Made by a program: the position numbers and the translations under genes. This document shows positions 10,884-42,870 of a DNA stretch of 64,000 nt, in pieces. The notes under the pieces are model-generated. The model had not been told where the DNA came from. It did not search any database and saw only the letters and a program-made list of their open reading frames with translations. Source of the DNA: a virus (Duplodnaviria; Caudoviricetes); the IMG/VR virus record IMGVR_UViG_3300031994_000039, positions 32,001 to 96,000 of that record, one strand, 5' to 3'. Every line of letters begins with the position of its first letter. Within the stretch, counting starts at the first letter, position 1.

Positions 10884-11701
10884 TAACTTACTTCCTCCTT
10901 AACTTCCACAATATCACAACCGGATAAGTAGTTGTGATCTACGGAGCCGAGATTTAAATTCCTATACGCTTCGTCAATTTCCTCCGCCGTGATTCCTATG
11001 TAAGCAAGTGTTTGTGCTGGGGAAGAATGATTCAACATCTTCTGAAGCAACATTAACTTACGTGGATCGTTATGGCTCATTAACATCTGATGATAACAGA
11101 ATGTCTTTCTCAACGAGTGAGTGGACATCTTCATATCCAGTGATAAATCATCTGCGATCCTGTACAGAATTCCATTGATTGACCTAACATCAAGCGGACT
11201 GTTCACGTTCTTTCCTCTATTGGACAAGCTACGAAACATGAAATCGCTGAGCGAAACGCCGTCTGTATGTTCAAGATATAATGTAACCGCCTCAATTACT
11301 GCATCGTTGACGGTTATATATCTGTTGACTTTCTTTTTCCTGGTGTTCCTTGTCTTCTTCTCGAAGACCGGAAATCTGTCTTTAAAAACAAAATTCGGAT
11401 TGATAATGTTAGCAAACCTCAGAAGCCTGAGGTCGCTAACTCTCAACCCGAAGTTAATTCCTACAACAAACAGCATGTAATCACGCCATCTGCCGTTCTT
11501 TTTTAAATAATCACAAACCCTTTCAATATCTTTCATACTCTTGATCGGGTCTGATGTTCTGTCTTCACAGACATCTTCTGGACAACTCTGTGTTGCCGGA
11601 GCAATAAGCCCCGCACTGAGCTGCTTGTTGTTTCTCTTGAGCTCTGATACATCAATTGTCTTATACATTCCTGCATCAACTGTCATGAGAATCACCACCA
11701 T
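10883..11701 (-). CDS. Tyrosine recombinase (catalytic domain only)
   Basis: GLRVSDL, EKKT, HSLRKT, LNHSS, TLAYIG: complete R-K-H-R-H-Y set; true start may be MYKT at 11668. Confidence 0.9.
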   Translation of the reverse strand: MVVILMTVDAGMYKTIDVSELKRNNKQLSAGLIAPATQSCPEDVCEDRTSDPIKSMKDIERVCDYLKKNGRWRDYMLFVVGINFGLRVSDLRLLRFANIINPNFVFKDRFPVFEKKTRNTRKKKVNRYITVNDAVIEAVTLYLEHTDGVSLSDFMFRSLSNRGKNVNSPLDVRSINGILYRIADDLSLDMKMSTHSLRKTFCYHQMLMSHNDPRKLMLLQKMLNHSSPAQTLAYIGITAEEIDEAYRNLNLGSVDHNYLSGCDIVEVKEEVS

Positions 11702-12090
11702 TCATAATAAAAGACTTCATATGTGTTAAAATTGACCGTTCGTAAGATCTCGGTAAGTTCCCTCGCTGTTCGTTCAACCTCATCATAATACCACCGGTCA
11801 TATTCAGTTCCTCCGAAGAAGTAGCCATCACTCGACGGAAGTAATTTCCTTGATGTACGATGATTTTTATTCTTCTTATAAGCTTCAACAACCTTCAGAC
11901 AGTCATCACGAAGCTGAGTAAGCTGCTCCTTTGTTACCGGATGTTCCTCACAATTTGACTCTGTGTTGTATCCTGTATTGTCTACAAACCACTGGCGAAT
12001 CTGATTCGCTTTTCTCCAGTACATAATCTCTCTTGGTTCTGGTGGTTCCTTAACCTTAACCCTCTTGTATAAAAACATATCAAGTCCCAT
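11692..12090 (-). CDS. Conserved phage hypothetical protein
   Basis: MGLDMFL...YWRKANQI..WF...LLP...G.FFG. Confidence 0.75.
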   Translation of the reverse strand: MGLDMFLYKRVKVKEPPEPREIMYWRKANQIRQWFVDNTGYNTESNCEEHPVTKEQLTQLRDDCLKVVEAYKKNKNHRTSRKLLPSSDGYFFGGTEYDRWYYDEVERTARELTEILRTVNFNTYEVFYYEWW

Positions 12091-12119
12091 ACTATACTTA
12101 CCTATCCTTTCTACTTACC

Positions 12120-12740
12120 TTAATGTTGATCAAATACTACCTGTTCGCCGTTCTTCAGCGACCAGCAATTAGCAAACGCTAATGCACAATCTGTACAATT
12201 TCCCGGACACGGCTTTGCATCTGGTCTGTGTGTCCAGTGATGCGCCTTGTTCTTAACATGTGCTTCCGGAAGATTGTGCGGATTACTATATTCTTGAGCA
12301 ATCCATATACTGAAGATAACCCTGAGGTTCTCAGGAATCTCAGGGGTTGTTTCATCTTCAATATATTCATTCACAATTTCATACTGCTTTGTAAAGCAGA
12401 GGATTCTGCATTCCGGATTATTGATTGCTGCCTGAACCATGTTCTTGAAGTATTCCATATTAGGAATATCTCCTGACACATGGAATCGGAAGAACTTATT
12501 AAGTGCAAGCACCGCATTAATTTCCTTCCAGAAAACCTCAGGCTGATTGTTAAGCACCTCCCAGTTATGCATATAAGCTGCTCTTACTGGAGGTCTTAAA
12601 TTTTCAAGCTTTCTTGCATAGCAGTTCTTGATGCACTTGGCACCCGGTCTGCATGAAAGTACTGATGGAAGAGATACACTTGCGATCTTTCCCATCTTTG
12701 AGTTGCCCTCTGAAATTTTAAGTGTCATAATCTTACCCAA
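12120..12740 (-). CDS. GP88-like (radical-SAM-like, Cys-rich) protein
   Basis: GNSKMG...C-x5-C-x3-CYA, FRFHVSGD, C-terminal CPGNCTDC...CW. Confidence 0.7.
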   Translation of the reverse strand: MGKIMTLKISEGNSKMGKIASVSLPSVLSCRPGAKCIKNCYARKLENLRPPVRAAYMHNWEVLNNQPEVFWKEINAVLALNKFFRFHVSGDIPNMEYFKNMVQAAINNPECRILCFTKQYEIVNEYIEDETTPEIPENLRVIFSIWIAQEYSNPHNLPEAHVKNKAHHWTHRPDAKPCPGNCTDCALAFANCWSLKNGEQVVFDQH

Positions 12741-15301: not shown

Positions 15302-15544
15302 TTTGTAATCTAAAGACTGAGATCATGATCGTCATTTCTTTCGGGCCGCCAGGCCAGGAAGAAATTTCGATCCTGATCTTTAGGGTTTGCTATTTTGCAA
15401 ACTAACTTTGCTTTACTTTCGCTGACAGCAAAAGCCGCCTTTATTATTCTTAGCCTACTTCCATCGTAGGGAGGAAGAGCGGATTCCCACCGCATTGCCA
15501 ACTTATCAGGTTGGAGGTAAATAAAAGCATGATGTCATTACAAA
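15302..15544 (-). ncRNA. Structured RNA closed by terminal inverted repeats; candidate third retron-like msr-msd
   Basis: TTTGTAAT/ATTACAAA terminal IR followed by G; six internal hairpins including a long CTAAAGA..GATCG/CGATC..TCTTTAG stem. Confidence 0.45.
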
Positions 15545-15697
15545 TCTCTAAACCAGTAATTATTCTTGTTAATAATTAACAAGACCCCTCTTTATCTGGC
15601 TACCTTCTGTCTTCCTTGGAGTCAGACAGCTTGGTGACGCATCGCAATAGGCTGTGCGTACTTCAAAGGGTAAATGCGGAGTCTACCTTCCGCCAGG

Positions 15698-15768
15698 TAA
15701 GGTACTAGGGAGTTGCACCCTAATCTCTGCCTTCCAAGGGCAGGGCTTTACTATTAAGCTAGTACCTC
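15698..15768 (-). tRNA. tRNA-Pro(TGG)
   Basis: Acceptor GAGGTAC/GTACCTT, anticodon arm CTGCC-CTTGGAA-GGCAG, T arm TAGGG-TGCAACT-CCCTA. Confidence 0.85.
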
Positions 15769-15967
15769 ATATAAATATAAGGGAGTTAGATTTCTCCGAC
15801 TCCCTCAAGTATACATCCGAAAACGTATACCCCAATTACTAATCATTGCCTTCACACTAATAGCTAACAGAACTTCCCGCCATAGCTGGGCGGTTATGTG
15901 AAAAGCAAACTCCCGACTACTCAACCGGTATGTTCGTTGGGAGATTTAATTGAAGTTCTCTTTTACA

Positions 15968-16290
15968 CACGCATGTGGCTAATTTCAAACCGGTTATTAT
16001 CCGAAGATTTACCGGAGCAACTAAACCCCTCACGCCACCAGGCGGGCTGCTTAGAAACACGGCTCATTAAAGAGCTCTTCAGTATGTCCTGATTATTTGG
16101 TTGAGGGAAGTAGGTTTCTATTATAATCTCCGCAAGCCTACAAATCCGGGTCCGAAAATATCGCAAAACATTTCTGCTCCGCAACGCAAACGGCGATAAC
16201 CGTTTTCCAATAATGTTCCACCTTTAAGGCAGTGGGACACCTAAAAACTTGCCTCGGTCCGCAGTACATTTCTGTCTTATGCGTGGCAAG
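15968..16290 (-). ncRNA. Unidentified ~320-nt structured RNA in the tRNA cluster
   Basis: Nested long-range pairs CACGCAT/ATGCGTG, CGGTTAT/ATAACCG, CGGAGCA/TGCTCCG plus local hairpins; no credible ORF. Confidence 0.55.
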
Positions 16291-16294
16291 CAAG

Positions 16295-16376
16295 TGGGAG
16301 AAGATGGACTCGAACCATCGAAGGACATAGCCAGCGGATTTACAATCCGCCCTCATTGCCGCTAGAGAATTCTCCC
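16295..16376 (-). tRNA. tRNA-Tyr(GTA)
   Basis: GGGAGAA/TTCTCCC acceptor, GCGGA-TTGTAAA-TCCGC, long variable arm, TTCGAGT T loop. Confidence 0.9.
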
Positions 16377-16384
16377 GTATTATA

Positions 16385-16549
16385 TCAAGGCACATAATTG
16401 TACATTTCTTGACTTCCTAATTTACGATAATTATTATTCGTAAGTTCTTCTTTTGAATGTCTTACTCTGCGATTCCAAAGTTTCTTGTAGTGCTTCTTAG
16501 ATTCCTTGATACCATCTTTTAACCATCTGTCTTTCTTAGAACCTTTCAT
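16385..16549 (-). CDS. Small basic protein between tRNAs (54 aa)
   Basis: MKGSKKDRWLK...WNRRVRH; AAAGGG RBS. Confidence 0.55.
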   Translation of the reverse strand: MKGSKKDRWLKDGIKESKKHYKKLWNRRVRHSKEELTNNNYRKLGSQEMYNYVP

Positions 16550-16569
16550 ATTAAATACCCTTTCGTAGA

Positions 16570-16641
16570 TTGGAGCACCGGGATTTGAACCCGGGAATGA
16601 CGGAGTCAAAGTCCGTTGCCTTACCGCTTGGCTATGCCCCA
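16570..16641 (-). tRNA. tRNA-Gln(TTG)
   Basis: TGGGGCATAGCCAAGCGGTAAGGC..ACGGA-CTTTGAC-TCCGT..GGTTCAAATCC. Confidence 0.92.
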
Positions 16642-16742
16642 GGGCAGCTGCAGGAGTTGAACCCGCACCCTCGTCGATTACTTACTGACTGTTTTATCAT
16701 GAATTAACAGTCTGCTTTCACCAACGAGAACCGTTCACTGCC
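16642..16742 (-). ncRNA. tRNA-like RNA with an elongated arm replacing the anticodon arm
   Basis: Acceptor GGCAGT/GCTGCC, T arm GCGGG-TTCAACT-CCTGC, no D stem, 9-bp + 7-bp extended arm. Confidence 0.55.
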
Positions 16743-16880
16743 GTTTGTTCCAACTTTGTTTTCCGTGAGAAGACTTTTCATCCTCTCTTTGAACTCTACT
16801 AAATTAAGGATTTCCTTCCTGTCTGATTCATCAATCTTGCTAAGTCTTTCAGAATCAAAATACCCACCAGAAGTTTTCAT
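16704..16880 (-). CDS. Small protein (58 aa) overlapping the tRNA-like RNA
   Basis: GAGGTGA RBS, MKTSGGYFDSERL... Confidence 0.4.
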   Translation of the reverse strand: MKTSGGYFDSERLSKIDESDRKEILNLVEFKERMKSLLTENKVGTNGSERFSLVKADC

Positions 16881-16895
16881 AATATCACCTCGAAA

Positions 16896-16970
16896 GTACC
16901 TCTACCGGAATCGAACCGGCGCCTCTTTCCATTACTGGAAAGCGTGTTACCATTCTATCACTAAGCGGCA
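16896..16970 (-). tRNA. Atypical tRNA, identity undetermined (8-nt anticodon loop)
   Basis: Cloverleaf with GCCGG-TTCGATT-CCGGT T arm; anticodon arm CTTTC-CAGTAATG-GAAAG; one acceptor mismatch. Confidence 0.55.
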
Positions 16971-16976
16971 CAATAA

Positions 16977-17048
16977 CAAGAGCCCCAGGAATCGAACCCA
17001 GTCTATCTGTCTTGACAACAGATGTGCTATCCTTTACACTATGCTCTT
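16977..17048 (-). tRNA. Atypical tRNA (positional anticodon TCA with G33, or distorted Asp-GTC)
   Basis: AAGAGC/GCTCTT acceptor, GTGT/GCAC D stem, TCTGT-TGTCAAG-ACAGA, GGTTCGATTCC. Confidence 0.55.
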
Positions 17049-17230
17049 GAAGCATATACTATGTGTGGTCAACAACATGGTAGTGAAAACCCGGCATTAA
17101 AGGGGATGCCGGGGAAACTTTAAATGGAGGTTTGAAAGTATGCACAACACCGAAATTTAATATGCTTTTGAAAAGGAGAGTAACTTATGAATAAAAATAC
17201 CACCACACATAGCCTTATATTAGATAATGA

Positions 17231-17302
17231 TTGCGGGAGCCGGACTCGAACCGACGACTTCCAGAATATGGGTCTGGCGATCTACCTCTGCTCTATCCCG
17301 CC
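17231..17302 (-). tRNA. tRNA-Met/Ile2 (CAT)
   Basis: CCAGA-CCCATAT-TCTGG; G1:A72 mismatch; GGTTCGAGTCC. Confidence 0.8.
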
Positions 17303-17371
17303 ATACATAAGCCGCCGACCACTTCCAAAACCGGCGACTTAGAAACCCTTTGTACACATGGCACACGGGCG

Positions 17372-17430: not shown

Positions 17431-17757
17431 CTCAGTCACGTTTTATTTTTATGTCGAGTCAGAACTGAGACACTCGACAATTACGAATCGTTTATTGGCA
17501 CACTGTATATTTAGATATACATTAATAGAAATACTGTCAAGTTGTTTATAATTCCCACAGTTATGTGGATCAAACAGTATAATTTTTTCAAACACTGACT
17601 GAAGAACTTTTAAATATTTTTGTTTTGCGATCAAACAGAAATTTTAAAACAAAATTCGGTGATCAAGTTTTCGCGTTACTTTCGCTGACAGCAAAAGCAT
17701 GTTATAGTCAACATCATTTCTTCTATCAATCAGTCCCGCGTCTACTGCTGAACGATA

Positions 17758-20273: not shown

Positions 20274-21440
20274 TTATAAAGTTTTCAAGTCATTCTTAAT
20301 TGACTCAGCTATATTCAAGCCGACCTTCTGACTCATCTTGTCAACTATTTTCTGAATGGCTTCCTTTTCGACCATCGAGAAGTAATTACGATACCCTTCG
20401 AGCACTTGAATGTCATTCAACGACCAGTCCTTTCCGTTCTTTTTGTCCATGCCGTATGAATACAACATTGCGGTGAACTTTTTCTTGTTCTTATATCCGA
20501 CTGTAATCTGATTGTCCTTATTAAGCATTACGCCAAGATTCCAGTTTGAACCTGCAGAAGAACCATACCTTGTCTTCTTTCTATTAAGCTCGAACGGAGC
20601 TCCGAATTCCTGAAGAACCTTTACTATTTCGTCCTCAATCATCTTGTAACTGAAGTCTATCTTACATGATATGATGAAGTCATCCGCATATCTTGTATAC
20701 ACAAACTTCCTGTTATCATAATCCCTGAACATATTAAACAGCTTGTAGTCAATTGGGATCATCATGATGTTTGTTATTAGTGGGCTGATCGGAGTTCCTT
20801 GAGGAAGCCCGCCGTTTAAGAACGCAAGGCTGATTGCCTGCTCGAAATATTTCTTTCCTTCCGGAACCGCAAGAACTCTGGAAAACGGAAAAATCATACT
20901 GAACATCTTTGTCACGAATTCCGGAGTTGTGCTTCCAAAGAAGTTATGAAGGTCGAACTTTGCAAACCACTTACTTTCATTACCCTGATGTCTCTTTACT
21001 GCATCCAGTGTGCTTCTGCCTTTTATATATGCAAATGCTGATGTATGATACATCGCACCAAATCCATCCTCGAAGATGAACTTAAGTTCCCGAAGCGCCT
21101 CCATAAGTCTCGGCTTAGGTGCATCGATTCTACGAAGGCCGCCGGATCTCTTCGGAATGTGGAATGATCTATAAAGTTCCGCTCTATCCACTTCAAAGAG
21201 ATCCTTGTACTTCTCGTTAAAGCACCACAATTCATTAATGAGTGACTGAATATTCAAACTGCCGAATATCTTTTCAGCATTTCTGGATAAGTATGTTCGT
21301 GTGTTTGTATTCCTGCCGTCCTTGCGTGTATAGTTTTTATATCTTTCGTTCCATTCATTATCTGGTAACGAAAAGAAATCGTCCAGAGATAGCTGAACTG
21401 TTTTCTTATTAAGAACAACTACTACATACTCATTGTACAT
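20274..21440 (-). CDS. Retron-type reverse transcriptase (388 aa)
   Basis: IPKRSGGLRRIDAP, region-X-like SAFAY..GRS...DAVKRH, KFDLHNFFGS, GLPQGTPISP, YTRYADD, region-Y-like NLGV; start at ATG after AAAGGAGG. Confidence 0.9.
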   Translation of the reverse strand: MYNEYVVVVLNKKTVQLSLDDFFSLPDNEWNERYKNYTRKDGRNTNTRTYLSRNAEKIFGSLNIQSLINELWCFNEKYKDLFEVDRAELYRSFHIPKRSGGLRRIDAPKPRLMEALRELKFIFEDGFGAMYHTSAFAYIKGRSTLDAVKRHQGNESKWFAKFDLHNFFGSTTPEFVTKMFSMIFPFSRVLAVPEGKKYFEQAISLAFLNGGLPQGTPISPLITNIMMIPIDYKLFNMFRDYDNRKFVYTRYADDFIISCKIDFSYKMIEDEIVKVLQEFGAPFELNRKKTRYGSSAGSNWNLGVMLNKDNQITVGYKNKKKFTAMLYSYGMDKKNGKDWSLNDIQVLEGYRNYFSMVEKEAIQKIVDKMSQKVGLNIAESIKNDLKTL

Positions 21441-21459
21441 AGAGTTTCCTCCTTTCAAA

Positions 21460-21651
21460 TTAATTGTCAACCTCCACGACAATCTTATTATTGTCCAGAG
21501 AGAAGAAGACCACGGCGTGATCGAGGAAATCCTCAACCCGCTGTGGACTTTCGTTCTTTGTGCTTTCAATTATAACTTCCTGACTGCCTGCAGAAACCAG
21601 TGTGAAGTCTATGCTCAGTGCAGCCTTACTGTAAAAATCCCCAAATTTCAT
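21460..21651 (-). CDS. Small protein (63 aa) between DUF5688 and the RT
   Basis: AGAGGA RBS; fills the gap upstream of the RT. Confidence 0.6.
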   Translation of the reverse strand: MKFGDFYSKAALSIDFTLVSAGSQEVIIESTKNESPQRVEDFLDHAVVFFSLDNNKIVVEVDN

Positions 21652-21672
21652 TTTTCCTAGTCCTCTTTATTT

Positions 21673-22584
21673 TTAGCAATTAACCGTCGTAAATTCTTTC
21701 GTGTCTTTATTGAAGAAGAATATCTCTCCAGAAAGAGTATCCGCTGGTCCGAATATTCTATTTGTTTCCGTTACATTACGCTTAATGCTCGTCGGATCGA
21801 TGCTTCCAACCTTGTGAACCATAGCCTCGTGTATACTTGTGAACGCTACGTAGAAGCTATCGCCGTACATTTCTGCAAGCTTTTCCTTAACTCCCGGACA
21901 GAACATTGCGATCGCTCCGTTTGTTTTCCTGCTGGTTGTGACGAGCGTGACTCTGTTGTTACTAAGTCTTTCCTTGCTTTCGAGAACTTTCTTTCCGCTT
22001 CCGTCAGTTATGTTAAACATGTCTGTGTAGAACATTGGAACCTGATTCTTTACTGTGTTCTCCATTGCAGCCGCGAAGATATCCAAATCCTTCATACCTG
22101 TCTGCTTCTTATATCCTTCGACACATCTCATCGGAACCTTTATTGTGTTCAAGATTCCGTCGCAGTCACTCATAATAAGGTAAAGAACCAGCGCAATATC
22201 ACCCTTCTTGCAGTACATGCAAGGTTCTTTTGCATTCTTCTGGATAAATTCCGCACTATAATTCACAGGTCTGATGATTAATTCGTCCTTAATCTTAGTG
22301 TAGTCTTCTATTCTGTCGATCTTATTCATGAATCCACCAGCCCTTTTTCTGATGCTTGTCAAAGCCTCGCCAGTTGCCCTAAGGACAATGTCCCATCCTC
22401 TTTCGTTTACTGACTTCTGTGTATCTGCCAGTCTTACTGCCATTGATACCTCATCGCCGTTCAGTTTTATTCTTGCAACCTCTACATCATTTACACATTC
22501 AACGAGGAATTCCTCATTTGCCTGGATAAGATTGTATTCTTCCATTTTTTCTTTTAATACCTTTGCAAATTCTTTGTTAGTCAT
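21673..22584 (-). CDS. DUF5688-family protein
   Basis: LIIRPVNY...GDIALVLY...TNGAIAMF.P...FYVAFTSIHE...LSGEIFFF. Confidence 0.7.
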   Translation of the reverse strand: MTNKEFAKVLKEKMEEYNLIQANEEFLVECVNDVEVARIKLNGDEVSMAVRLADTQKSVNERGWDIVLRATGEALTSIRKRAGGFMNKIDRIEDYTKIKDELIIRPVNYSAEFIQKNAKEPCMYCKKGDIALVLYLIMSDCDGILNTIKVPMRCVEGYKKQTGMKDLDIFAAAMENTVKNQVPMFYTDMFNITDGSGKKVLESKERLSNNRVTLVTTSRKTNGAIAMFCPGVKEKLAEMYGDSFYVAFTSIHEAMVHKVGSIDPTSIKRNVTETNRIFGPADTLSGEIFFFNKDTKEFTTVNC

Positions 22585-22625
22585 AATCAAAACCTCCAAG
22601 TTTAATTATCTTACTACCATTGTTC

Positions 22626-22903
22626 GTGTAACCTGATTACCTTTCAGGATCTCAGGGCAGCGGGCGCTGGTGCCACCGGCGCGCGTCAAAGCGATCTTTT
22701 ATTTGTTCCTTTGCGGAACAAAAGAACGAAGGTCCACGTATTTGCGTGCTTCCTGAGATCTGTTTCTCTAATCAGGGCGGCTCCAGATCCGGAGATGGCG
22801 ACTTGAGTTGTCGCCTCTCCTCCTCCTTCGCCTTATCATGTCGAGCCTTTTAATTACATCAAAAGGTTATTTCATATTGGATATAAAATAATATGCGTTA
22901 CAC
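22626..22903 (-). ncRNA. Retron-like msr-msd ncRNA 1
   Basis: Terminal IR GTGTAAC/GTTACAC; G immediately 3' of the 5' repeat (22896); two short 5' hairpins; long 3' stem CCTGATTA..GATCTCAGG / CCTGAGATC..TAATCAGG. Confidence 0.75.
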
Positions 22904-22932
22904 ATTTTCATGTATTAATAAAAGATAGCGTG

Positions 22933-23017
22933 ATACATAAATTACATAAACAATACCGCCGCAAAAATCCCGCAAACCACGTAGCTATCAGGTTTGCGGG
23001 GGATAGTTTTTTCCAAC
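22933..23017 (-). promoter_or_regulatory. Promoter/operator-like element, homologous to 41509-41584
   Basis: GTTGGAAA-A-AACTA + IR enclosing TAGCTACGTGGTT + ATTTATGTAT. Confidence 0.55.
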
Positions 23018-23057
23018 TTTCTTGCGGAGTTATGTTTTATTACGTTTTGTCGCTCGC

Positions 23058-23720
23058 TTAAAAAGCGTCGATTTCAAAGCTCTTCAGATCAACTAAAACC
23101 ATCTTCTTAATTCCTTCGCCCTTTACGAAGTGTATGAAGTTGGTTACTGCGATTGACGATACCACTCTAACAACAGGGCACACGCCCAGTGTAATGCCGC
23201 AAGCTGATGTGGGAGTTTCTGCCTTCGCTTCTTCATGGCTGAACTGCATTGTAGCCAGAAGATTTTCCCTCATGCTTTTATCTGACCAGTCAGCAGCGTA
23301 ATGCTGTGCGTGCTCTAACAAAGTTCTTATGTCGAACACTGCTTTAACCATCGGATTAAGCATATGTTTTTCACAGATTTCTCTGCGGATCTCGATACTG
23401 TCTACGCAAAGGAAGACATATCCTGCAAGAGTTTCACCGTTCCAACCCTTCTTTGTTTTGATCTCGATGTCCGGATTGATGTTCTGGAGAATACCCTTGA
23501 GAGCTTCTGTCTTTTCCTTGCCGACATCTTCTTTCGTGAACATCTGGTTCACGATATTATGTTCCTCTACCTTATCAAAATCCCAGAGAACCATTGACTT
23601 TACGCCACAGCGGGCGAGGTTTTCTGCGATTGTTGAACCGACAGATCCACATCCGATGATGTGGATGTTGCCGTTTACATTGCTTGGGTTGAAGTATTCG
23701 AGTGATTTTGATAAATTCAT
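23058..23720 (-). CDS. ThiF/E1-like adenylyltransferase
   Basis: IIGCGSVGS, WDFDKVEEHNIVNQ, FLCVDS, SACG (candidate catalytic Cys); no CxxC zinc pairs. Confidence 0.9.
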   Translation of the reverse strand: MNLSKSLEYFNPSNVNGNIHIIGCGSVGSTIAENLARCGVKSMVLWDFDKVEEHNIVNQMFTKEDVGKEKTEALKGILQNINPDIEIKTKKGWNGETLAGYVFLCVDSIEIRREICEKHMLNPMVKAVFDIRTLLEHAQHYAADWSDKSMRENLLATMQFSHEEAKAETPTSACGITLGVCPVVRVVSSIAVTNFIHFVKGEGIKKMVLVDLKSFEIDAF

Positions 23721-23721
23721 A

Positions 23722-24333
23722 TTAACACGCCTCCACAAATAATTCTTCAAGGTTCACCTTTTCTTCTTCAGGTTCTTCTTTGATCTGGACTTCCGTTGTA
23801 CAGTACTCTTCAAATGCCTTCATGAGTTCTTCGGCAAATTCACTTTCCTGTTCTTCTGTAAGAGCTGGTGTCTCAGGTTCAGGTTCCTCTTCCGGAATCT
23901 CATAATTGTCAACAATTTCATGGATGATGTCCATTATATCTGTTGCTGCTTCCCCTTCTGCGGCAGGTTCTTCTTCCTCCTCAGGGTCATCCTCTTCTTC
24001 GGGTTCATCTTCCCATTCCTGGTTGTTGTCCATATATGATTTGAGATCGTCTTTATAATCATTGAACTGCCCGTCGTTGTCGTCTGTTCCTCTCCACGTT
24101 CCGTCGTAGTCGTCGTGTATATATCTGTCATACCTGTCACTTGGTATATCATCAACCAAGCTTCTTAAATCTGACAGAGAGTCGCAGTACTTTGCGTCAT
24201 CGAGAATTCTGCTTTCAAATTCGCCGTGCGTATATAAACCGCCTGTGAAAACATCATTAAAATAATCATAATCCCTTGCGCATTGTTCCAGTTCATCATA
24301 GGTGGTGATATCTTCAAACTCTGTTCGTGTCAT
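23722..24333 (-). CDS. Highly acidic protein in the Ubl operon
   Basis: D/E-rich throughout, with EEEDDPEEEEEP tracts. Confidence 0.7.
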   Translation of the reverse strand: MTRTEFEDITTYDELEQCARDYDYFNDVFTGGLYTHGEFESRILDDAKYCDSLSDLRSLVDDIPSDRYDRYIHDDYDGTWRGTDDNDGQFNDYKDDLKSYMDNNQEWEDEPEEEDDPEEEEEPAAEGEAATDIMDIIHEIVDNYEIPEEEPEPETPALTEEQESEFAEELMKAFEEYCTTEVQIKEEPEEEKVNLEELFVEAC

Positions 24334-24352
24334 ATTTCAGACCCTCCTTACC

Positions 24353-25162
24353 TTACCATCCGCAACCAAATCTTTCGCTCAGCCACGCTTCGTATTCCTC
24401 ATCTGTCATGCCAGCGTAGTAGTCACTATATTTTGATTTCTTACCGCCTTTGCCTTTGCCGATAGTCTTTGTGTCGGCTAAGGTACCCTTCAGATTGTAA
24501 ATCTGTGTACCTGTGTATCTTGGGAAGTATTCATCAACCACGAGTTCCTTCGCTTTTTCTGCGAACTCCAGGATTTCCTCTTCGACATCGACGAATACCG
24601 TAACATCATTGTCTTCATAGACTGTGTTACTCTGTTTATCGTAAATGTTTACGTATACGTCTCCTTTTTTATTTGTAACCAAGAAGATATAGAAGTCGTC
24701 GTCTCTGAGCTGATCAACGATTCCTCCGTAATAGGTTTCGTCTACGCTTGAAGGAGTTACGCCCATGTTTACATGGCTGTGCCCCTGCATTCTTAAGTTC
24801 TGAAAAACCTCGTCTGGCTGTTCGTAGAGCCACATCTGATACTTTTCCTGATCCGTAGTGACAGTTGAACCTGTTACCTTCTGCGGGTAAACTACTATGT
24901 CGTCGATGACATAATCGCCGTCCTTTACCTTTCTGGCGATGCCGTGCCATGCAACCTCTTTATCAAACTTATCAACCAGTGCTCTCATTTTCTTATCGGC
25001 AAGCTGACTGATTTCCAGTGAAGCTTTTTTGCCGGTATTCAGTGTGAGTTTCTTGCTGTAGTTGACTGTGTTATTCTTGAAGACTCCGGCTGCGAGAAAT
25101 TTTAAAAATTCCTCACGGATCTTTTCAATTTCTGTCTGATCTATATTAAATGCACGACTCAT
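24353..25162 (-). CDS. JAB/MPN+ metallopeptidase (deubiquitinase-like)
   Basis: EVAWHG...GHSHVNMGVTPSSVD = E...HxH-x7-S-x2-D. Confidence 0.9.
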   Translation of the reverse strand: MSRAFNIDQTEIEKIREEFLKFLAAGVFKNNTVNYSKKLTLNTGKKASLEISQLADKKMRALVDKFDKEVAWHGIARKVKDGDYVIDDIVVYPQKVTGSTVTTDQEKYQMWLYEQPDEVFQNLRMQGHSHVNMGVTPSSVDETYYGGIVDQLRDDDFYIFLVTNKKGDVYVNIYDKQSNTVYEDNDVTVFVDVEEEILEFAEKAKELVVDEYFPRYTGTQIYNLKGTLADTKTIGKGKGGKKSKYSDYYAGMTDEEYEAWLSERFGCGW

Positions 25163-25166
25163 ATGA

Positions 25167-26570
25167 TTAACCTTCCTTTCTAAGTTCCTCAAGAACTTCA
25201 TTGAGTGTGTAGCTGTTTCCGTTTAATTCAAAAGCTCTCTTGTTTGTTCTTGTTATGCGAGTTGTAAACTCTTCCATAACGGTGCTGTCTGCGAAGTTCA
25301 ATGAACGAACTGACATTCCGCAGAGACTGAGACACTGGATTGTATCGCCCGCCTTGAGCGCATCGACCATCATCATTTCATAGTCACCTAAACAGTGGTA
25401 ACGGTCGATATGTGTATTCGGGAAGTAATCCTGAACTTCTGGAATGTAGCTTGCGTCTGCTATTCCAGTCACTCTGAACTCGCTTATCTTTATTCTGTAA
25501 GCTGCAACACTCTTGAGCTTCACACTATGTTCTACGAAGATCGCATTGAAGAGTTTTTCTGTGTCCTCTCTGCTGATGTTTGAATAATCGTAAATAATAC
25601 TATCGTAATTATCTACAAATTCCTCAGCTGTATCCGAATCAAATACATCAAGATATCCAGTAGCAAAAAACTCGATTGAGTCGCCGCTGCATGAATTGAA
25701 TACGAGATTTTTATTTGCCTTGAAGAAGTCGAGAATTTCGTTACTTTCATTCTTCACAACATTTCTTAATCCATCAATAATGATGTTCTTATCTCTTATC
25801 TTTATGAGCAGATTCGAAATTTCCTCACGCTTCATAGCTATCGTCTGTTCCAGTGATGAGATTTCGTTCTTGTGATATTCTAACTTATTCTTTGCAAAGC
25901 GAGTCTCAATTCCTGAAAGTGCTGCTTCCATTTTCCTTTCCCGGATGCCCTTGATAGCTGCGATGTTTGCGATTGCCTTTAAGAAAGGTTCTACGTTAGT
26001 CTTGCTGAGAGTTTCAAGGAACTCTGTTTCCTCTTTGGTGATAGGCTTTTCCTTGAAGAACCACGGCAGATATACCGGAGTTCCCATTAATACATAACGT
26101 TCTGTTTCAAGAGACATATTTTCTATCGGCTTATAGATTACGATTGTCCGCTTGCCGCATGTGAAACATGTTACCTCAGTTCTGCTAAAGAACTTTCTAA
26201 CCTTCGCAGTTTCAACCCATTCCGGGCTCTTTTCCTTAACTCCCTCGCTGAGTTCGTCAAACCACTTTGTATCCGATCTCTTTACAGATATCAGCCATAA
26301 ATCCTCATCACACTTTTCTGTGTCGAATGTGAGTAATCTGTTGTGTAATTCATCGTATGATGAATCATACATGCCAGCGTTTCTGGTTATTTCGTTATAC
26401 CTGATTTTGAATGGCGCGTCGTCTTCGACCCTGTCGATTAATAACGCTCTTACAACCATATTGAATACTACGTCTGTACTATAATTCCATTCGATCTTAT
26501 AGATCTTCTTATCATCTTCGTCTTCGTTGTAACTGAAGGCAGTTGATGCTGGGATTCTTCCGTTGAACAT
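25167..26570 (-). CDS. Coiled-coil + prokaryotic E2-like conjugating enzyme
   Basis: Central coiled coil; C-terminal PNTHIDRYHCLG resembles the E2 HPH/HPN...CLG active site; context with E1, JAB and Ubl. Confidence 0.65.
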   Translation of the reverse strand: MFNGRIPASTAFSYNEDEDDKKIYKIEWNYSTDVVFNMVVRALLIDRVEDDAPFKIRYNEITRNAGMYDSSYDELHNRLLTFDTEKCDEDLWLISVKRSDTKWFDELSEGVKEKSPEWVETAKVRKFFSRTEVTCFTCGKRTIVIYKPIENMSLETERYVLMGTPVYLPWFFKEKPITKEETEFLETLSKTNVEPFLKAIANIAAIKGIRERKMEAALSGIETRFAKNKLEYHKNEISSLEQTIAMKREEISNLLIKIRDKNIIIDGLRNVVKNESNEILDFFKANKNLVFNSCSGDSIEFFATGYLDVFDSDTAEEFVDNYDSIIYDYSNISREDTEKLFNAIFVEHSVKLKSVAAYRIKISEFRVTGIADASYIPEVQDYFPNTHIDRYHCLGDYEMMMVDALKAGDTIQCLSLCGMSVRSLNFADSTVMEEFTTRITRTNKRAFELNGNSYTLNEVLEELRKEG

Positions 26571-26630
26571 TTAAAAATTCCTCCTTAGAAAGATTGGCGG
26601 GGTGTTGTGTTCCCCGCCTTTTGGTTTTGG

Positions 26631-26943
26631 TTTGTGTAACCTAATTAGAAGTTGATCCTGATGAAGGATGAGTTCTGGGCTACTCAACCAGGTGAACTTC
26701 TATTACGATGACCTTTTTCCTGATCTGCGGGCTGCGCAATCTTGGGGCTTCCTGAACATATTTCTGCTTGGATGTTGATTGAGCTTTTAATTTTTTTTTT
26801 TAGTATGTTTTAATCAGATAAAACAGTACCCAGCTCGTGTCCAGATACCTCCTTCCGGCGGAGGTGCCTCCTTTCCCTTAACAATGCGATCCATTCACTG
26901 ACAGTAAATGGTTGTTTTAAAAAAACAAAATGCGTTACACAAA
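26631..26943 (-). ncRNA. Retron-like msr-msd ncRNA 2
   Basis: 10-bp terminal IR TTTGTGTAAC/GTTACACAAA, G at 26933; 5' ~90 nt and 3' TAATTAGGTTACAC are homologous to ncRNA 1. Confidence 0.75.
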
Positions 26944-26972: not shown

Positions 26973-27200
26973 TTAAGCGTTGTCTGCTTTAACCACCTGT
27001 AAGAGGTAGCATTTATCAGTAACGCCGTAGTCTGCAAAGGTCTTATTGAAATCCGCACTGCCTACGACGCTGCCGTTGAGTGTGATTCCGCCTGCGGCAA
27101 CATTGAGATTTGCCTGTTCTGCGGCTTCGAGAATTGTAGTGCTTGGGTCAAGAACTAATTCTGTTTTATTGAGTGATGTTCCGCTTATTACCTTAATCAT
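26973..27200 (-). CDS. Ubiquitin-like (beta-grasp) protein, copy 1 (75 aa, ends KADNA)
   Basis: Size, TT(I/L)xE...LNG...KTF.DYGV pattern; AAGGAGG RBS; context. Confidence 0.75.
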   Translation of the reverse strand: MIKVISGTSLNKTELVLDPSTTILEAAEQANLNVAAGGITLNGSVVGSADFNKTFADYGVTDKCYLLQVVKADNA

Positions 27201-27284: not shown

Positions 27285-27665
27285 TCACATAATTGTGATG
27301 CTATCCATTGCTGTGCTGAGTGCGTTCTTGGCAGCTTCGATCTTTTCCGGAGCAGTTGCCTCGAATGCGTTCATTTTAGCAAGAGCCTTGCCATACTTTT
27401 CAGCAATGAACCCCTTGATCTTATCCGGTTCAAGATCGCCGACAGAAACTGAAGTGCTTGCGTAGCCGCTTGCATCAGTCTTATCGAAGGTGATTCCGTA
27501 TGTTCCGATTGAGCCTGTGGTTCCTGTTGCAACCTTAAAATCAATTTCCTTTTCCTCGTTCTTAACGACGAGTGCTTCAGGTGTTACTGTTGCAAGTGTT
27601 TCGAGATCTGCTGTGAGAATTGTGCTTGTGAAAACTGCGATGCCTGAGATTACTGTTACCTTCAT
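27285..27665 (-). CDS. 126-aa protein, paralog A in the Ubl operon
   Basis: Same length and clearly similar to 27751-28131. Confidence 0.8.
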   Translation of the reverse strand: MKVTVISGIAVFTSTILTADLETLATVTPEALVVKNEEKEIDFKVATGTTGSIGTYGITFDKTDASGYASTSVSVGDLEPDKIKGFIAEKYGKALAKMNAFEATAPEKIEAAKNALSTAMDSITIM

Positions 27666-27750: not shown

Positions 27751-28131
27751 TTACATAATTGTGATGTTGTTCATTGCTGTTTCAAGAGCTGACTTAGCAA
27801 GTGCGATACGCTCTGGTGCAACCTCTTCAAAAGAGTTCATCTTTGCGATTGCCTTGCCATATTTAGTGGCAATGAATTCCTTCACCTTGTCTGCCGGAAT
27901 GTTACCGATTTCAACAGATGTTGAAGCGAAGCCGCTTGCGTCTGTCTTGTCGAAGGTGATTCCGTAGGTACCAACTGAGCCCTTTGAGCCTGTGTCAACC
28001 ACAAACTCAATTTCTTTTTCTTCGTTCTTGGCGATGAGCACTTCCGGAGTTACCTTCTTGAGTGTTTCCAGATCAGACATGAGAACTGCACTTGTGAAAA
28101 CCGCGATTCCGCTGATTACAGTAATTTTCAT
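27751..28131 (-). CDS. 126-aa protein, paralog B in the Ubl operon
   Basis: MKITVISGIAVFTS...GTYGITFDKTDASG shared with paralog A. Confidence 0.8.
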   Translation of the reverse strand: MKITVISGIAVFTSAVLMSDLETLKKVTPEVLIAKNEEKEIEFVVDTGSKGSVGTYGITFDKTDASGFASTSVEIGNIPADKVKEFIATKYGKAIAKMNSFEEVAPERIALAKSALETAMNNITIM

Positions 28132-28294: not shown

Positions 28295-28522
28295 TTAAGC
28301 GTTGTCTGCCTTAACTACCTGGAGTAAGTAACATTTATCTGTTACTCCGTAGTCGTTGAAAGTCTTGTTGAAATCCCCACCGGAAACCATTGAGCCGTTG
28401 AGTGTGATTCCGCCCGCAGGAACGTTGAGTCCTGCCTGCTCTGCAGCTTCCATGAGTGTTGTTGATGGGTCGATAACGAGTTCTGTCTTGTTGAGTGATG
28501 TTCCTGAGATTACCTTGATCAT
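28295..28522 (-). CDS. Ubiquitin-like protein, copy 2 (75 aa, ends KADNA)
   Basis: 65/75 residues identical to copy 1. Confidence 0.75.
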   Translation of the reverse strand: MIKVISGTSLNKTELVIDPSTTLMEAAEQAGLNVPAGGITLNGSMVSGGDFNKTFNDYGVTDKCYLLQVVKADNA

Positions 28523-37606: not shown

Positions 37607-40600
37607 GTGGTTACTATTAGCAAGCAGTTGACATGTCAGAAGTACATTCTGAAGATTAACAGCTCAAGGCTTCGCAGAGAGAAGTGGAATCTTAACGTCT
37701 CACTTGACGAAGCCAGGAACAATGACGAGATCATCTCACTGGCGGACAGTCAGATGCTCAGGTGGATCGACGAGCTGAATGGAGTAACGGACGCTGACAG
37801 AAAGGCAAAGTCAATCAAAAAGCAGATAAGGGAACTGCGTAAGTGCGAACCGTCTTTACAAATACGCCGTGAAATGCGCAGGCTCTATTCTGATCTGGAT
37901 GCACTTCAGTTTAAACCGGACTATCTTTGTTTAATTATAGACAAAGGTAAAGATTATCTGCGAGCAGTAAAGGGATTTAAAGTAAACGGAATAAAGTATA
38001 AACGTTTGCTTGGAACTACTGGTGGTATTAAGAACTCCACCATAGTGTTTGTCTCGGAAAGGCTCTCGGACGAGCTGCACAGGCGTATCAACAACGGTAG
38101 GGATATGACCAAGGCTATGGTGCCCGCCAAGCTGAATGCATACATGGCGCTGACCTGTAGTGCTTCAGTTCCGGTATCACTACCGAAAGGGATCCTGGTT
38201 GTGGATGATGTAGAGACTGAGTTCCTCTCAGATATCATTTATCTCTCCAGTCAGGATGAGGGCGAACCGGTGATGGAATACAAGAAGGATTATCTTATGA
38301 AGCTTGATGCCACTGACGGCTTCGGACTGATGCTTCCCTCTCTGGCACAGAGGTGGAGTGAGGAGATAGGTCTTGACTATACGGCAAGCGGTATGTGCTG
38401 TAGGTACAGCTTTACTAAGGGTATGGTTTTTACGTTTGACTTTCTGGACTTTGCTGATAAGGTCGCAGGCGGCAAATATCTTGTCAAGGACGTATGGGGC
38501 AACGAGGTGGATATCAGGAATGTAGAACTGATACTGACCACATCTATGTTAAAGTTATGGGACAGCTATCCAAGCTGTGAGGAGTTTATCAGATTATCTG
38601 AGGAGAATCACTATACATTCGCTATAACCAAAGCGTGCCCGGAGGTACTTGAGGATGAACGATGTTTAAACTATCAGTTTGTACAGCCATTTAACCTCGA
38701 TGAGGATGATATACAGGAACTTATCTCCCCTACCCTTAACGAGATATGGGATGTGCTGCAAGGCGACTGGCGGCGTGCTCTCGTATTCCTCAGAGGCGTA
38801 GGTATGACGGAAGAAAACATTGGCCGCTCAGCTGATGATATCGCTAAGGCTATAATGGCGGACCAGAGAGTGTTCGATGATCCATATGTCCAGAATAGTA
38901 TTTATCAGCTTATCAGGAACAGAATTAACGCTGCGAAGATAGGCGTGCTCAAGGTTCACGCAAATTATTCGATTGTATCTGGAGATCCATATATTCTGTG
39001 CCAGAAAGTATTTGGTCTGGAGGAAACCGGATTACTTAAGGCCGGGGAGATATATAATCAGTATTGGGCTGATAACAGCTCTGATGAAGTAGTGTGCTTC
39101 AGAGCCCCGATGTCTTGTCATGAAAATATAAGGAAAATGAAAGTTTGTAAGTCCGATGAGGTTCGGTACTGGTATCAGTATATGAAGACCTGCACAATAC
39201 TTAATGCGTGGGATGAAACAATGCCCTCATTAAATGGATTAGACTTCGACGGAGATCTCACGTTTATAACAGATAACGAAGTTCTACTCCGCAGACATGA
39301 AAAGCTTCCGGCTATTGTTTGTATCCAGAAGAAGGCAGAAAAGAAAATAGCTTCGGAAGAAGACTTCGTTGTATCTGATATGAATGCTTTCGGTAATGAT
39401 ATTGGCAGTATTACAAACAGAACTACTTCAATGTATGAGGTTAGGTATAACTATGAAAAAGGAAGCAGAGAATATGAAGAGCTTACATACCGCATAAGGT
39501 GTGGTCAGCTCCTACAACAGGATTATCAATTATCGACTAGTCCGCTTGTACAGAAATGTGCTTGAAAAACGACTCATTGAATTGCTGGAATCCCTTAAAG
39601 CTTACAGTGCTACAACGGAGGAGCGAACAGTTCCAAACGTGAATGCGGCGAAAGCAGAAAGAAACTGTAAGATGGTATATGGTTAAATCCTAAGTATTAA
39701 GCAATAGGCAATCTAGCAGCTAAGTTCCGAACAGGAGAAAGTTCAACGACTAACTCTTATGAGTGTAGGGATACAAGCTATTGGTATTTCGAAGTGGTGG
39801 GCATCCTTAGGGATGATGATATAGTCTTCTCTCAGTCGAAATGGCTGAGGACGAAAGTCGGCAAGGAGTAGCGTCCTATTATAACTTAAATAGTTTAGCC
39901 AAAAGGAAAGGGCAATTGATAAAGCAAAGGGTATTATATCTCTTCCGGCTCCGAGAGAGTGGTACGATCGTCATGCGGTAGCTAAGATCGAAGATGATGA
40001 GAAGCGTGATTTCTACCGCACGATCATCGCAGACAAAAAGCCAATGTTCATGACCTACATCTACCCTTCTCTGGCGAGAGATTATAAGGACTTTCTATCC
40101 AGTACAAACAAGAACGCGTTGAGAGAGTTTGGTATGACAGTAGGAGAACTTAAAGAAAAGAGATATGATGAACTCACACCGAGACAGATTGAGTTCCTGC
40201 ATTATTACGATAAGATGATGCCGGTTGGCTTAAATGACTGTGTAATGAACAGAATCTGCAGAATCTTCGAGAGAGAGTTTGATGACTTCATCAAGAACAA
40301 GTCCGGTACAAATGCTGAATTTGATCCGGAGATCCTGAAGAGTGGCATAACTTATACTGACAAGGATTATAAGGCCGTTAGGAATCTGCATAATGATTAT
40401 CTTAACAGACTCAAGAATTATAAAACCAGAGCGTGCTATGAGCGTGTTGATGGTGATGAATTCAATGAACAGCTCGACAGAATCAAAGCTGAGTTTGAGG
40501 AAGAATGTGACAAGGTTTGTCCGTGTAGAAGAACACTCACAGACATCCTTATTGATATTTGTTATTCAAACGCATCCACCAAGAGATATATCTGGAGCTC

Positions 40601-41835: not shown

Positions 41836-42870
41836 ATGATTATAATGCCGAGGAAAACACAGATGAATGAAATCACCTCCCCGGAACTTATAAGTCAGAT
41901 CCTTCCGGAGAACAGAATATTACTGAAAGATTTCATGGATTATCTTCGCTCGATTCAGAGGAGCGAAACAACTATTGCCGCCTACGAGAACGATATACAG
42001 ATTGCGTTCGTGTGGAATTTAAAGTTTAACGGCAATAAGGAATTTTATAACTGGACAAAGAGAAATGTGGTAGCGTATCAGAATTGGCTGTTAAATAATA
42101 ACGGCAACTCCCCAGCCAGAGTAAGAAGGCTTAAAGCTTCACTTTCTTCTTTAAGTAACTATATCGAGAATGTTCTTGATGACGAATACCCAGGATTCAG
42201 GAATATTATCAATAAGGTCGAGAGTCCGGTAATAACTCCAGTAAGAGAAAAGACTGTCTTCACGGAGGAACAAATTGAAACTCTGCTGAATACTCTTACT
42301 GAAAAGAAGAAGTATGATAAGGCTTGTGCGGTTGCACTTGCTTTATATTCTGGAAGAAGAAAATCAGAACTGTTAAGATTTAAGGTTTCTGATTTTGATG
42401 ACAGTCATTTAACATGCGGCGGATCCTTATACAGAAGCGATCCGATTAAAACTAAAGGCAGGGGTGCTCAGGGTAAGATGCTTGAGTGTTATACACTTGC
42501 CAAACAATTTAAACCATACCTTGACAACTGGATGAGATACAGAGAAGAAAACAATATTCATAGCGAATGGTTGTTCCCTGATTCAGAGCAGCCAGGGCTG
42601 ACGATGACTATAGTAACGCTCAATAGTTGGGCTGAAGTATTTTCACGAATGATGGGTATAGACTTCTACTGGCACGCATTACGTCATATGACGGTTACAA
42701 ACTTCAAGCGTGCAGGAATACCTGACTCTGTTATTCAGTCTTACATAGGCTGGTCCGACCTCTCGATGGTGTCGGTATATTCAGACCTCAAGGCTGATGA
42801 ACAGCTCGGTATGTATTTCACTGAGAATGGTATGGTAGCACCGAAGGCTAAAGGCCTCGATGAAATTTAA
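41836..42870 (+). CDS. Tyrosine recombinase/integrase
   Basis: SAM-like N domain; SGRRKSEL, KTKG, HALRH, GW, VSVY. Confidence 0.9.
   Translation: MIIMPRKTQMNEITSPELISQILPENRILLKDFMDYLRSIQRSETTIAAYENDIQIAFVWNLKFNGNKEFYNWTKRNVVAYQNWLLNNNGNSPARVRRLKASLSSLSNYIENVLDDEYPGFRNIINKVESPVITPVREKTVFTEEQIETLLNTLTEKKKYDKACAVALALYSGRRKSELLRFKVSDFDDSHLTCGGSLYRSDPIKTKGRGAQGKMLECYTLAKQFKPYLDNWMRYREENNIHSEWLFPDSEQPGLTMTIVTLNSWAEVFSRMMGIDFYWHALRHMTVTNFKRAGIPDSVIQSYIGWSDLSMVSVYSDLKADEQLGMYFTENGMVAPKAKGLDEI

Follow-up and report, generated by a model that had tools for sequence, protein, structure and literature searches.

Our analysis of a 64-kb stretch of phage DNA (the window, bases 32001-96000 of the 112.5-kb IMG/VR virus record IMGVR_UViG_3300031994_000039, which is rated 95% complete) shows one gene for a retron-type reverse transcriptase (RT) accompanied by four noncoding RNA (ncRNA) cassettes that are built on the plan of retron template RNAs, and by a set of genes for conjugation of a ubiquitin-like protein (Ubl). 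The source is a gut phage of about 112 kb. Retrons are bacterial systems of one enzyme, one template RNA and one toxin-like effector that abort phage infection. The explanation we favor, and regard as probable, is that this phage carries a retron of its own in which one RT serves several template RNAs, within a conflict module where the Ubl set replaces the effector. The literature searched, whose coverage is incomplete, holds no natural retron with several template RNAs and none tied to a ubiquitin-like set; no description of a multi-template phage retron beside a Ubl set was found in it, and such a system would be a variant of the retron. The cassette anatomy observed in a preliminary description of this DNA, which was made from the sequence alone, is confirmed; the two msr-msd-like RNAs described there are both present, but that count was too low, since there are four. 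The interpretation given there is supported, as all of the checks at sequence level that it suggested gave favorable results. Positions given below are those of the window unless the record is named.

Four RNA cassettes and one reverse transcriptase

The four cassettes share a plan consisting of a helix of terminal inverted repeats (a1/a2), a G right after a1, then a hairpin or larger structure that varies, a second hairpin (hairpin 2) that is conserved, a GUAAC-type linker and a purine tract, and their interiors are four different sequences. A covariance model made from the RNA alignment described below and run on the whole 112.5-kb genome places all four on the same strand as the RT, no farther than 12 kb from it. 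The features of this part of the window are:

26632..26942, minus strand: cassette A, msr-msd-like ncRNA (covariance model 59.2 bits, E 2.7e-10); a1 26942-26934, G 26933, hairpin 1 26928-26912, hairpin 2 26911-26891, linker and purine tract about 26890-26860, variable template, AG, a2 26640-26632
22625..22904, minus strand: cassette B (53.6 bits, E 4.3e-09); a1 22904-22897, G 22896, hairpin 1 22891-22867, hairpin 2 22866-22846, linker and purine tract about 22845-22814, long template structure 22775-22633, a2 22632-22625
17523..17725, minus strand: cassette C (match 17724-17652, 26 bits, E 0.003); a1 17725-17716 (TAGAAGAAAT), G 17715, hairpin 2 17698-17678, a2 17532-17523 (ATTTCTATTA)
15302..15544, minus strand: cassette D, the weakest (partial match 15455-15413, 21 bits, E 0.037); a1 15544-15537 (TTTGTAAT), G 15536, hairpin 2 15435-15415, a2 15309-15302 (ATTACAAA)
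15292-15270: terminator-like hairpin 3' of cassette D
20274..21440, minus strand: retron-type RT, 388 amino acids (AAs), with Pfam RVT_1, PADLOC, NCBIfam and PDB matches
21460..21651, minus strand: open reading frame (ORF) of 63 AAs between cassette B and the RT, found in the closest relatives only
21673..22599, minus strand: DUF5688 gene between cassette B and the RT (Pfam PF18941, 7.7e-25), found in the closest relatives only

Cassettes A and B occupy the two minus-strand gaps in which the preliminary description had seen its two RNAs, and all of the motifs quoted there are in place. The shared 5' motif, GTGTAACGCAT, occurs in the window only at 22903-22893 and 26940-26930, the shared 3' motif, TAATYAGGTTACAC, only at 22639-22626 and 26647-26634, and the putative branch G follows the 5' repeat at 22896 and 26933. 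The closing repeats are also present, but their extents needed correction, to 9 bp in A and to 8 bp with one G-U pair in B. The folds of both RNAs show the two 5' hairpins and paired ends, and their energies are below those of every shuffled sequence (z -6.8 for B and -3.1 for A). The two short exact words by themselves do not exceed chance expectation for 64 kb (at the mismatch settings used, at least two matches arose in 15 of 100 shuffles), so the significance of the cassettes derives from the comparative evidence (59 and 54 bits with the covariance model) and not from short words. In C and D the second hairpins are identical, and the end repeats pair with partners about 200-240 nucleotides (nt) downstream.

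Rfam has no family that matches the cassettes or their surroundings, be it at the gathering score or at E <= 5, and a promoter scan gave no clear promoter in front of them. ORFs of 23-24 codons that start at the linkers of A and B have neither a ribosome-binding site nor a counterpart in relatives, and the copied strand within A and B contains no open frame of at least 40 AAs. GC skew was considered as a sign that the cassettes are origins and rejected; the skew follows the direction of transcription and is uninformative about the cassettes. Cassette B is preceded by a terminator-like hairpin, which suggests that B, the DUF5688 gene, the 63-AA ORF and the RT gene form a transcription unit of their own, and the ribosome-binding site of the DUF5688 gene lies directly after B. 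That hairpin (CCCCCGCAAACC...GGTTTGCGGGATTTTT) is conserved and lies within window positions 22905-23057 (minus strand), between the E1-like gene of the Ubl set and cassette B.

The RT gene begins at ATG 21440; a start at TTG 21569 is not upheld, as the reading frame is open to there but the homologues begin at the equivalent of the ATG. Its 120 best homologues are 366-401 AAs long, nearly all 379-389. The grouping of the enzyme with retron RTs proposed earlier is borne out by PADLOC, NCBIfam and PDB, all of which rank retron RTs at the top, with the group II intron and defense-associated RTs (DRTs) far lower. The 25 PADLOC matches listed are all to retron RT models (best RT_II-A, 2.2e-46), the NCBIfam scores are 171.3 bits for retron St85, 88 for group II intron RT, 45 for Drt2 and 31 for Drt3a, and retron RTs fill the first ten places among PDB sequences (Ec78, Ec83, St85 family, Ec67 and Kva2); Pfam returns RVT_1 only (8.8e-18). 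YADD, PQG and the aspartate of FDL are invariant across 15 homologues. Judged by its sequence, the enzyme is of the retron or retron-like class with its catalytic motifs intact. No second RT was found in the 112.5-kb record.

The RNA family in related phages

Relatives of the RT are encoded on at least 553 IMG/VR stretches, on contigs of roughly 60-140 kb, and there are several thousand homologues in the protein collection. Among species-representative genomes an RT relative is present on 39 contigs, nearly all of them from gut or rumen metagenome-assembled genomes with labels that are mostly Clostridia. The RT-bearing relatives are a single phage lineage with collinear genomes. Part of this lineage may be temperate, given the three tyrosine recombinase genes of this phage (record 5701-6264, 42988-43533 and 74256-74792, the last two being window 10988-11533 and 42256-42792) and one relative, L033, whose record is classed as a provirus by IMG/VR.

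The gap that precedes the RT in the first six relatives has the build of the window cassettes but different end repeats (for example ATAACTGTAAT/ATTACAGTTAT, TTAGTTCAAA/TTTGAACTAA and TAAAAAATTGTGAT/ATCACGATTTTTTA). An iterated nhmmer search over about 125 loci (threshold E < 1e-3) gave 271 cassette matches in about 104 loci, with one to five per locus. The matches lie on the plus strand, which is the RT strand in those loci, in 270 cases; the remaining one is in the genome studied here, on the minus strand and thus again on that of the RT. Most are very close to the RT gene: 91 are located between the E1-like gene and the RT, 129 follow the RT within 1.2 kb, 38 lie farther downstream and just four are upstream of the gene for the 467-AA protein described below, so that 220 of 270 are within about 1.2 kb of the RT. 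The covariance model was also run on loci missed by the nhmmer profile (a hidden Markov model, HMM) and on relatives' records. It found cassettes in 12 of the 18 HMM-missed loci searched, including loci whose RTs have 40-41% identity, all 33 weaker matches in such loci are on the RT strand, and all 16 matches in five whole records of relatives are within about 10 kb of the RT. The preliminary description had suggested scanning for further copies with such a model; there are more in this phage and in nearly all RT-bearing relatives, on the RT strand and near the RT. The usual number of one ncRNA per RT does not hold in these phages, which have four here and one to five within 10 kb in relatives. 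The RNA family is confined to the neighborhood of the RT. (A scan of IMG/VR for an exact pattern returned four stretches; that pattern is too narrow to gauge occurrence without an RT.)

A cassette lies directly between the E1-like gene and the RT in 86 of 93 relatives, and here two inserted genes separate cassette B from the RT. The earlier statement that a 63-AA ORF rather than an ncRNA is found upstream of the RT is therefore correct for this genome but not for the family, in which that ORF and the DUF5688 gene are a lineage-specific insertion. A DUF5688 homologue was found in only one of 132 loci; the called genes of the close relatives L008, L137 and the DoERF6SL contig also include DUF5688.

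An alignment of 57 sequences with a hand-set structure shows compensatory changes in 12 of the 13 pairs of the two hairpins; 83.9% of cells pair, as against 68.6% in shuffled alignments, and the covariation score is 0.473, as against 0.215 when shuffled (none of 500 shuffles reaches 0.473) and 0.10-0.22 when the partners are slid by one to three columns. The two covarying hairpins would constitute the structured msr of a retron, and their recognition by the RT is putative. The G after a1 is 96% conserved among 202 distinct sequences, the linker positions A-G-U..C...U.G are 89-100% conserved, and the tract of about 15 nt after the linker is 73-84% purine, compared with 52.5% overall. When a helix was anchored at the conserved G and its partner sought 120-520 nt downstream in 210 distinct cassettes, 179 had a helix of at least 7 bp, against 65 of 210 in a reversed-sequence control, and a1 and a2 are paired in the unconstrained minimum-energy fold of 170 of these 179. 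The a1/a2 sequences differ from cassette to cassette, a2 is immediately preceded by G in 93%, with A one position further upstream in 79%, and the median length of the cassette RNA is 300 nt. Thus the terminal repeats covary and, with the G, are conserved in the RT-bearing relatives, as had been anticipated, and by analogy with retrons the conserved G at the inner end of a1 would be the 2'-5' branch point.

The template part of the cassettes diverges much faster than the handle, the flanks or the RT gene. Comparison with phage L137, whose RT is 97% identical and whose DNA is about 93% identical overall, shows that cassette B has 98% identity in the upstream flank, handle and 3' end and 64%, with insertions and deletions, in the template core; the substitutions show no adenine bias. 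Of 15 close pairs of relatives, 10 have a template whose conservation is more than 10 percentage points below that of the RT gene, and at 94% RT identity the handle is 94% and the template 73% identical. Compared with the rest of the 112.5-kb genome, the template parts match nothing beyond chance words of 11-14 nt. There are dozens of these, and a 10-nt word common to one template and a promoter spacer is accordingly no more than chance would give. The four cassettes (1031 nt) contain 14 GATC sites where 2.84 are expected from the genome rate, about a 5-fold excess, and paired GATC sites occur in a predicted stem of cassette B. The excess is weak in the family as a whole (1.45-fold, and 97 of 179 cassettes have none), so GATC richness is a lead only. 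The template parts of A, B and D together contain five TCAGGA (0.34 expected), and the motif AGATCWSAGGA is not enriched in the window.

The ubiquitin-like gene set and its surroundings

The genes that accompany the RT and its RNAs most regularly lie upstream of the RT gene on the same strand, among further features:

23058..23720, minus strand: small E1-like adenylyltransferase of the ThiF family, 220 AAs (Pfam ThiF 2.4e-25)
23722..24333, minus strand: acidic 203-AA protein, poorly conserved (homologues in 11 loci)
24353..25201, minus strand: JAB/JAMM peptidase-like protein (PADLOC JAB 6.8e-05; homologues in 113 of 132 loci)
25167..26570, minus strand: 467-AA protein, candidate E2, with an invariant PNxH..C.G motif and a predicted C-terminal UBC/RWD-like fold
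26973..27200, minus strand: ubiquitin-fold protein, 75 AAs, C-terminus VVKADNA (by structure model and Foldseek)
27285-27665 and 27751-28131, minus strand: two 126-AA paralogues with no family match, between the ubiquitin-fold genes (homologues in 61-78 of 132 loci)
28295..28522, minus strand: second ubiquitin-fold paralogue, 75 AAs (by family alignment)
28621-28593: strong sigma-70-like promoter match

The E1-like protein is the conserved upstream neighbor of the ncRNA-RT unit. Its motifs GCGxxGS, DFDxV..N..NQ and SAC are invariant, it is present in 121 of 124 RT loci, and in loci that were fetched through it an RT lies within 6 kb in 78 of 79 cases and, by coordinates, just beyond that distance in the last. 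Of 132 loci, many of them truncated, 97-121 have homologues of the E1-like, JAB-like, 467-AA and 75-AA proteins together with the RT. The JAB-like protein contains HSHVNMGVTPSSVD, an intact JAMM motif (HxH-x7-S-xx-D). The model of the 75-AA protein has a predicted local distance difference test score (pLDDT) of 77 and the order of elements of a beta-grasp fold, and it gave 47 Foldseek matches in PDB at E <= 1e-3, of which every one listed is ubiquitin, a ubiquitin-like protein or a complex with one. The family does not end in glycine but in an invariant Asn-Ala, and some members have one to four additional residues, as would be expected if a peptidase trims the Ubl. For the 467-AA protein (model pLDDT 86) VIA-align found four RWD-domain chains over residues 277-424, at Z 6.2-7.7, which is in the middling range; a Foldseek search gave nothing, and the protein atlas returned only unnamed viral clusters. 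The modeled likeness of its C-terminal domain to UBC is suggestive, not conclusive. PHROGs has no match for the proteins of the Ubl set.

It had been stated earlier that there is no classical retron effector nearby. This is literally true, as no neighbor has a PADLOC, Pfam or NCBIfam match to the known retron effectors (types I-XIII), but it overlooks the Ubl conjugation set as a conserved neighbor. By the logic through which retron effectors are assigned, this set is the candidate partner of the RT.

The accessory region around the module contains tRNA genes and an RNA-repair-like kinase gene, and relatives have genes for Thg1, RNA ligase and nicotinamide adenine dinucleotide (NAD) salvage nearby. 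Five tRNA genes form a cluster at 15696-17303 (minus strand) that is flanked by cassettes C and D; one of them (16976-17049), with the anticodon TCA (selenocysteine according to ARAGORN), may be able to read UGA. At the slot equivalent to that of cassette A, L001 and L003 have a tRNA-like gene. The gene right after cassette D (from about 15225 downward, minus strand) starts with MRVLLLFRGAPGCGKST, the start of a P-loop kinase, and resembles a repair protein annotated in relative L008 as AAA_33, Metallophos and RNA ligase. The plus-strand half of the genome contains three group I introns with scores higher than the Rfam gathering score (39514-39849, 45245-45502 and 53551-53875, plus strand).

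A probable phage-borne retron and its alternatives

The retrons nearest to the phage system by RT score are St85/Sen2 (type II-A) and Ec78/Ec83 (type I-A) (Mestre et al. 2020, PMC7736814). In common with the bacterial systems it has an RT of the retron clade, an ncRNA whose ends are closed by a1/a2 and which has a G just inside a1, hairpins in the msr that would serve RT recognition, a structured and variable template, and in most cases one ncRNA directly upstream of the RT. It differs from them in having several templates per RT, which lie upstream, downstream and at a distance, in being carried by large phages, in its long ncRNAs (median 300 nt), in an RT with AVKRH, NLG, an N-terminal extension and scores below the cut-offs, and in having a Ubl conjugation set instead of any of the 13 described effector types. 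Bacterial Bil defense operons are made up of Ubl, E2, JAB and E1 genes (bioRxiv 10.1101/2023.09.04.556158 and 10.1101/2023.09.26.559546). The phage set is similar in its gene order (Ubl, E2-like, JAB, E1), ubiquitin fold, intact JAMM motif and ThiF adenylation domain; it is unlike Bil in that it is encoded by a phage and joined to an RT and ncRNAs, its Ubl ends in Asn-Ala instead of Gly, its E1 has just 220 AAs, and its E2 candidate has 467 AAs and a weak likeness to UBC. The ncRNA-templated defense RTs (DRT2, DRT9, DRT3 and others) also have an RT with a dedicated structured ncRNA template beside its gene, but the phage RT scores low with their models (Drt2 45 and Drt3a 31 bits), the geometry of a1/a2 plus G is that of retrons, and no open frame is created in the copied strand. 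Phages that carry RTs related to bacterial retron RTs have been reported in a metagenomic survey (hLife 2024, PMC13681634); in the parts of that paper available it deals with RT clusters only, without ncRNA, multiple templates, gene context or function.

The RNA geometry, the RT class, the common strand and the clustering all fit retron templates, and one RT copying several templates is the simplest reading of them. A cassette would be transcribed on the RT strand and would fold with its a1/a2 ends paired. The RT would recognize the conserved hairpin 2, with its apical YUGUMAR loop, and the GUAAC-type linker, would prime from the 2'-OH of the conserved G right after a1, and would copy the variable interior from the conserved AG beside a2 to a stop near the purine tract that follows the linker; we infer the priming, copying and stopping steps from cassette anatomy and canonical retrons. 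The predicted products in this phage are four different branched multicopy single-stranded DNAs (msDNAs) of roughly 100-220 nt. Such fast-changing msDNAs could be baits or sensors, and the neighboring ubiquitin-like tagging set could stand in for the retron effector. As for the direction of this conflict, we lean slightly toward protection of the lysogen against other phages over counter-defense of the phage against its host. That the RT, the msDNAs and the Ubl set are one machine, in which the variable DNA hairpins decide when or on what the Ubl is conjugated, or are themselves joined to the Ubl, is a more specific proposal that we consider doubtful.

Several points weigh against a phage retron with a Ubl partner. 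The RT falls below the curated cut-off of every named retron family; its nearest family, St85 (NF038233), has a cut-off of 235 bits against the 171.3 scored here, so it is nearest to that family without being a member. In PDB alignments it reads AVKRH and NLG at the NAxxH and VTG positions of retron RTs, and so keeps only the H and the G; that these two are the most conserved residues of the motifs (Mestre et al. 2020, PMC7736814) counts in its favor. Its N-terminus is extended by about 80 AAs that the solved retron RTs lack. The scores of cassettes C and D are low (E 0.003 and 0.037), the a1/a2 helix of C has one mismatch in 10 bp, and D has about 100 nt of extra structure instead of the usual hairpin 1. 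The msDNA, its branch and discrete transcripts are predictions from sequence. The relatives are one collinear lineage, so the linkage of RT and Ubl genes could be inherited synteny, and conserved gene order alone is no proof of a functional link; moreover, the cassettes of most relatives are found on either side of the RT and not among the Ubl genes. Finally, this phage has no RNase H gene, and maturation would thus need a host enzyme. (In L009 and L010 a gene for RNase H, with matches to Cauli_VI and RNase_H, lies right after the RT and its downstream cassette, at 11494-12129 and 1762-2397, respectively.)

The foremost alternative accepts the cassettes as true retron templates and supposes that the msDNAs act alone as counter-defense decoys that soak up DNA-sensing or DNA-cutting defenses of the host, such as restriction enzymes, nucleases or the effectors of host retrons, the Ubl genes being mere neighbors. 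We regard this as possible, though distinctly less likely than a retron partnered with the Ubl set. Hypervariable template parts are what such decoys might have, and the surrounding accessory region, with its tRNA and RNA-repair-like kinase genes and the Thg1, RNA ligase and NAD-salvage genes of relatives, is in keeping with it, as are the approximately 5-fold GATC enrichment of the four cassettes and the paired GATC sites of the cassette B stem. GATC enrichment is not a trait of the family, however (1.45-fold, 97 of 179 cassettes without a site), there is no known decoy target, and the adjacency of E1, ncRNA and RT in 86 of 93 loci, which extends down to RTs of 40-41% identity, exceeds what is expected of a chance neighbor.

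It is unlikely, in our view, that the cassettes are structured RNAs that act as RNA (regulatory leaders, processing sites or small RNAs) and are never reverse transcribed, their closeness to the RT being due to conserved gene order. Cassette B does have the position of a 5' leader of the DUF5688-RT transcript, and all of the relatives belong to one phage lineage. On the other hand, the pairing of the RNA ends, together with a G just inside them that is 96% conserved and one facing it that is 93% conserved, is the geometry that defines retrons, a leader is not expected downstream of the gene as well and the cassettes lie on both sides of the RT, 220 of 270 within about 1.2 kb, and they accompany RTs as divergent as 40% identity.

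One RT with several different, fast-evolving templates might also suggest targeted change of other DNA, with the copies replacing matching sequence in the manner of a diversity-generating retroelement (DGR) or of recombination donors. This is very improbable, since template matches elsewhere in the genome of 112.5 kb do not exceed chance words of 11-14 nt, the RT belongs to another class than that of DGRs, and the substitutions between close relatives are not adenine-specific. A DGR as such was rejected, since the genome has each template part in a single copy and its RT is retron-class. That the cassettes are miniature mobile elements is hardly credible, even though they have terminal inverted repeats and occupy different intergenic slots in different relatives, because the repeats differ between copies in one genome while the hairpins covary, which indicates selection on RNA structure, none of the 270 copies in the retrieved loci departs from the strand of the RT, and target-site duplications were not noticed.

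Rfam does not contain this RNA family, and the definition given here is sufficient for modeling it. If the RNAs are copied, they would represent a new type of retron whose output is used by the phage itself, and a natural multiplexed DNA-writing system that would be of interest for retron editing where several donors per enzyme are wanted; the system could also connect reverse-transcribed DNA with protein tagging. Should the RT, the msDNAs and the Ubl set prove to be one machine, this would be protein tagging programmed by nucleic acid in the conflict between viruses or between virus and host. Gut and rumen phages of a large, widespread group have a retron-type RT together with several interchangeable, fast-evolving putative templates and no known effector.

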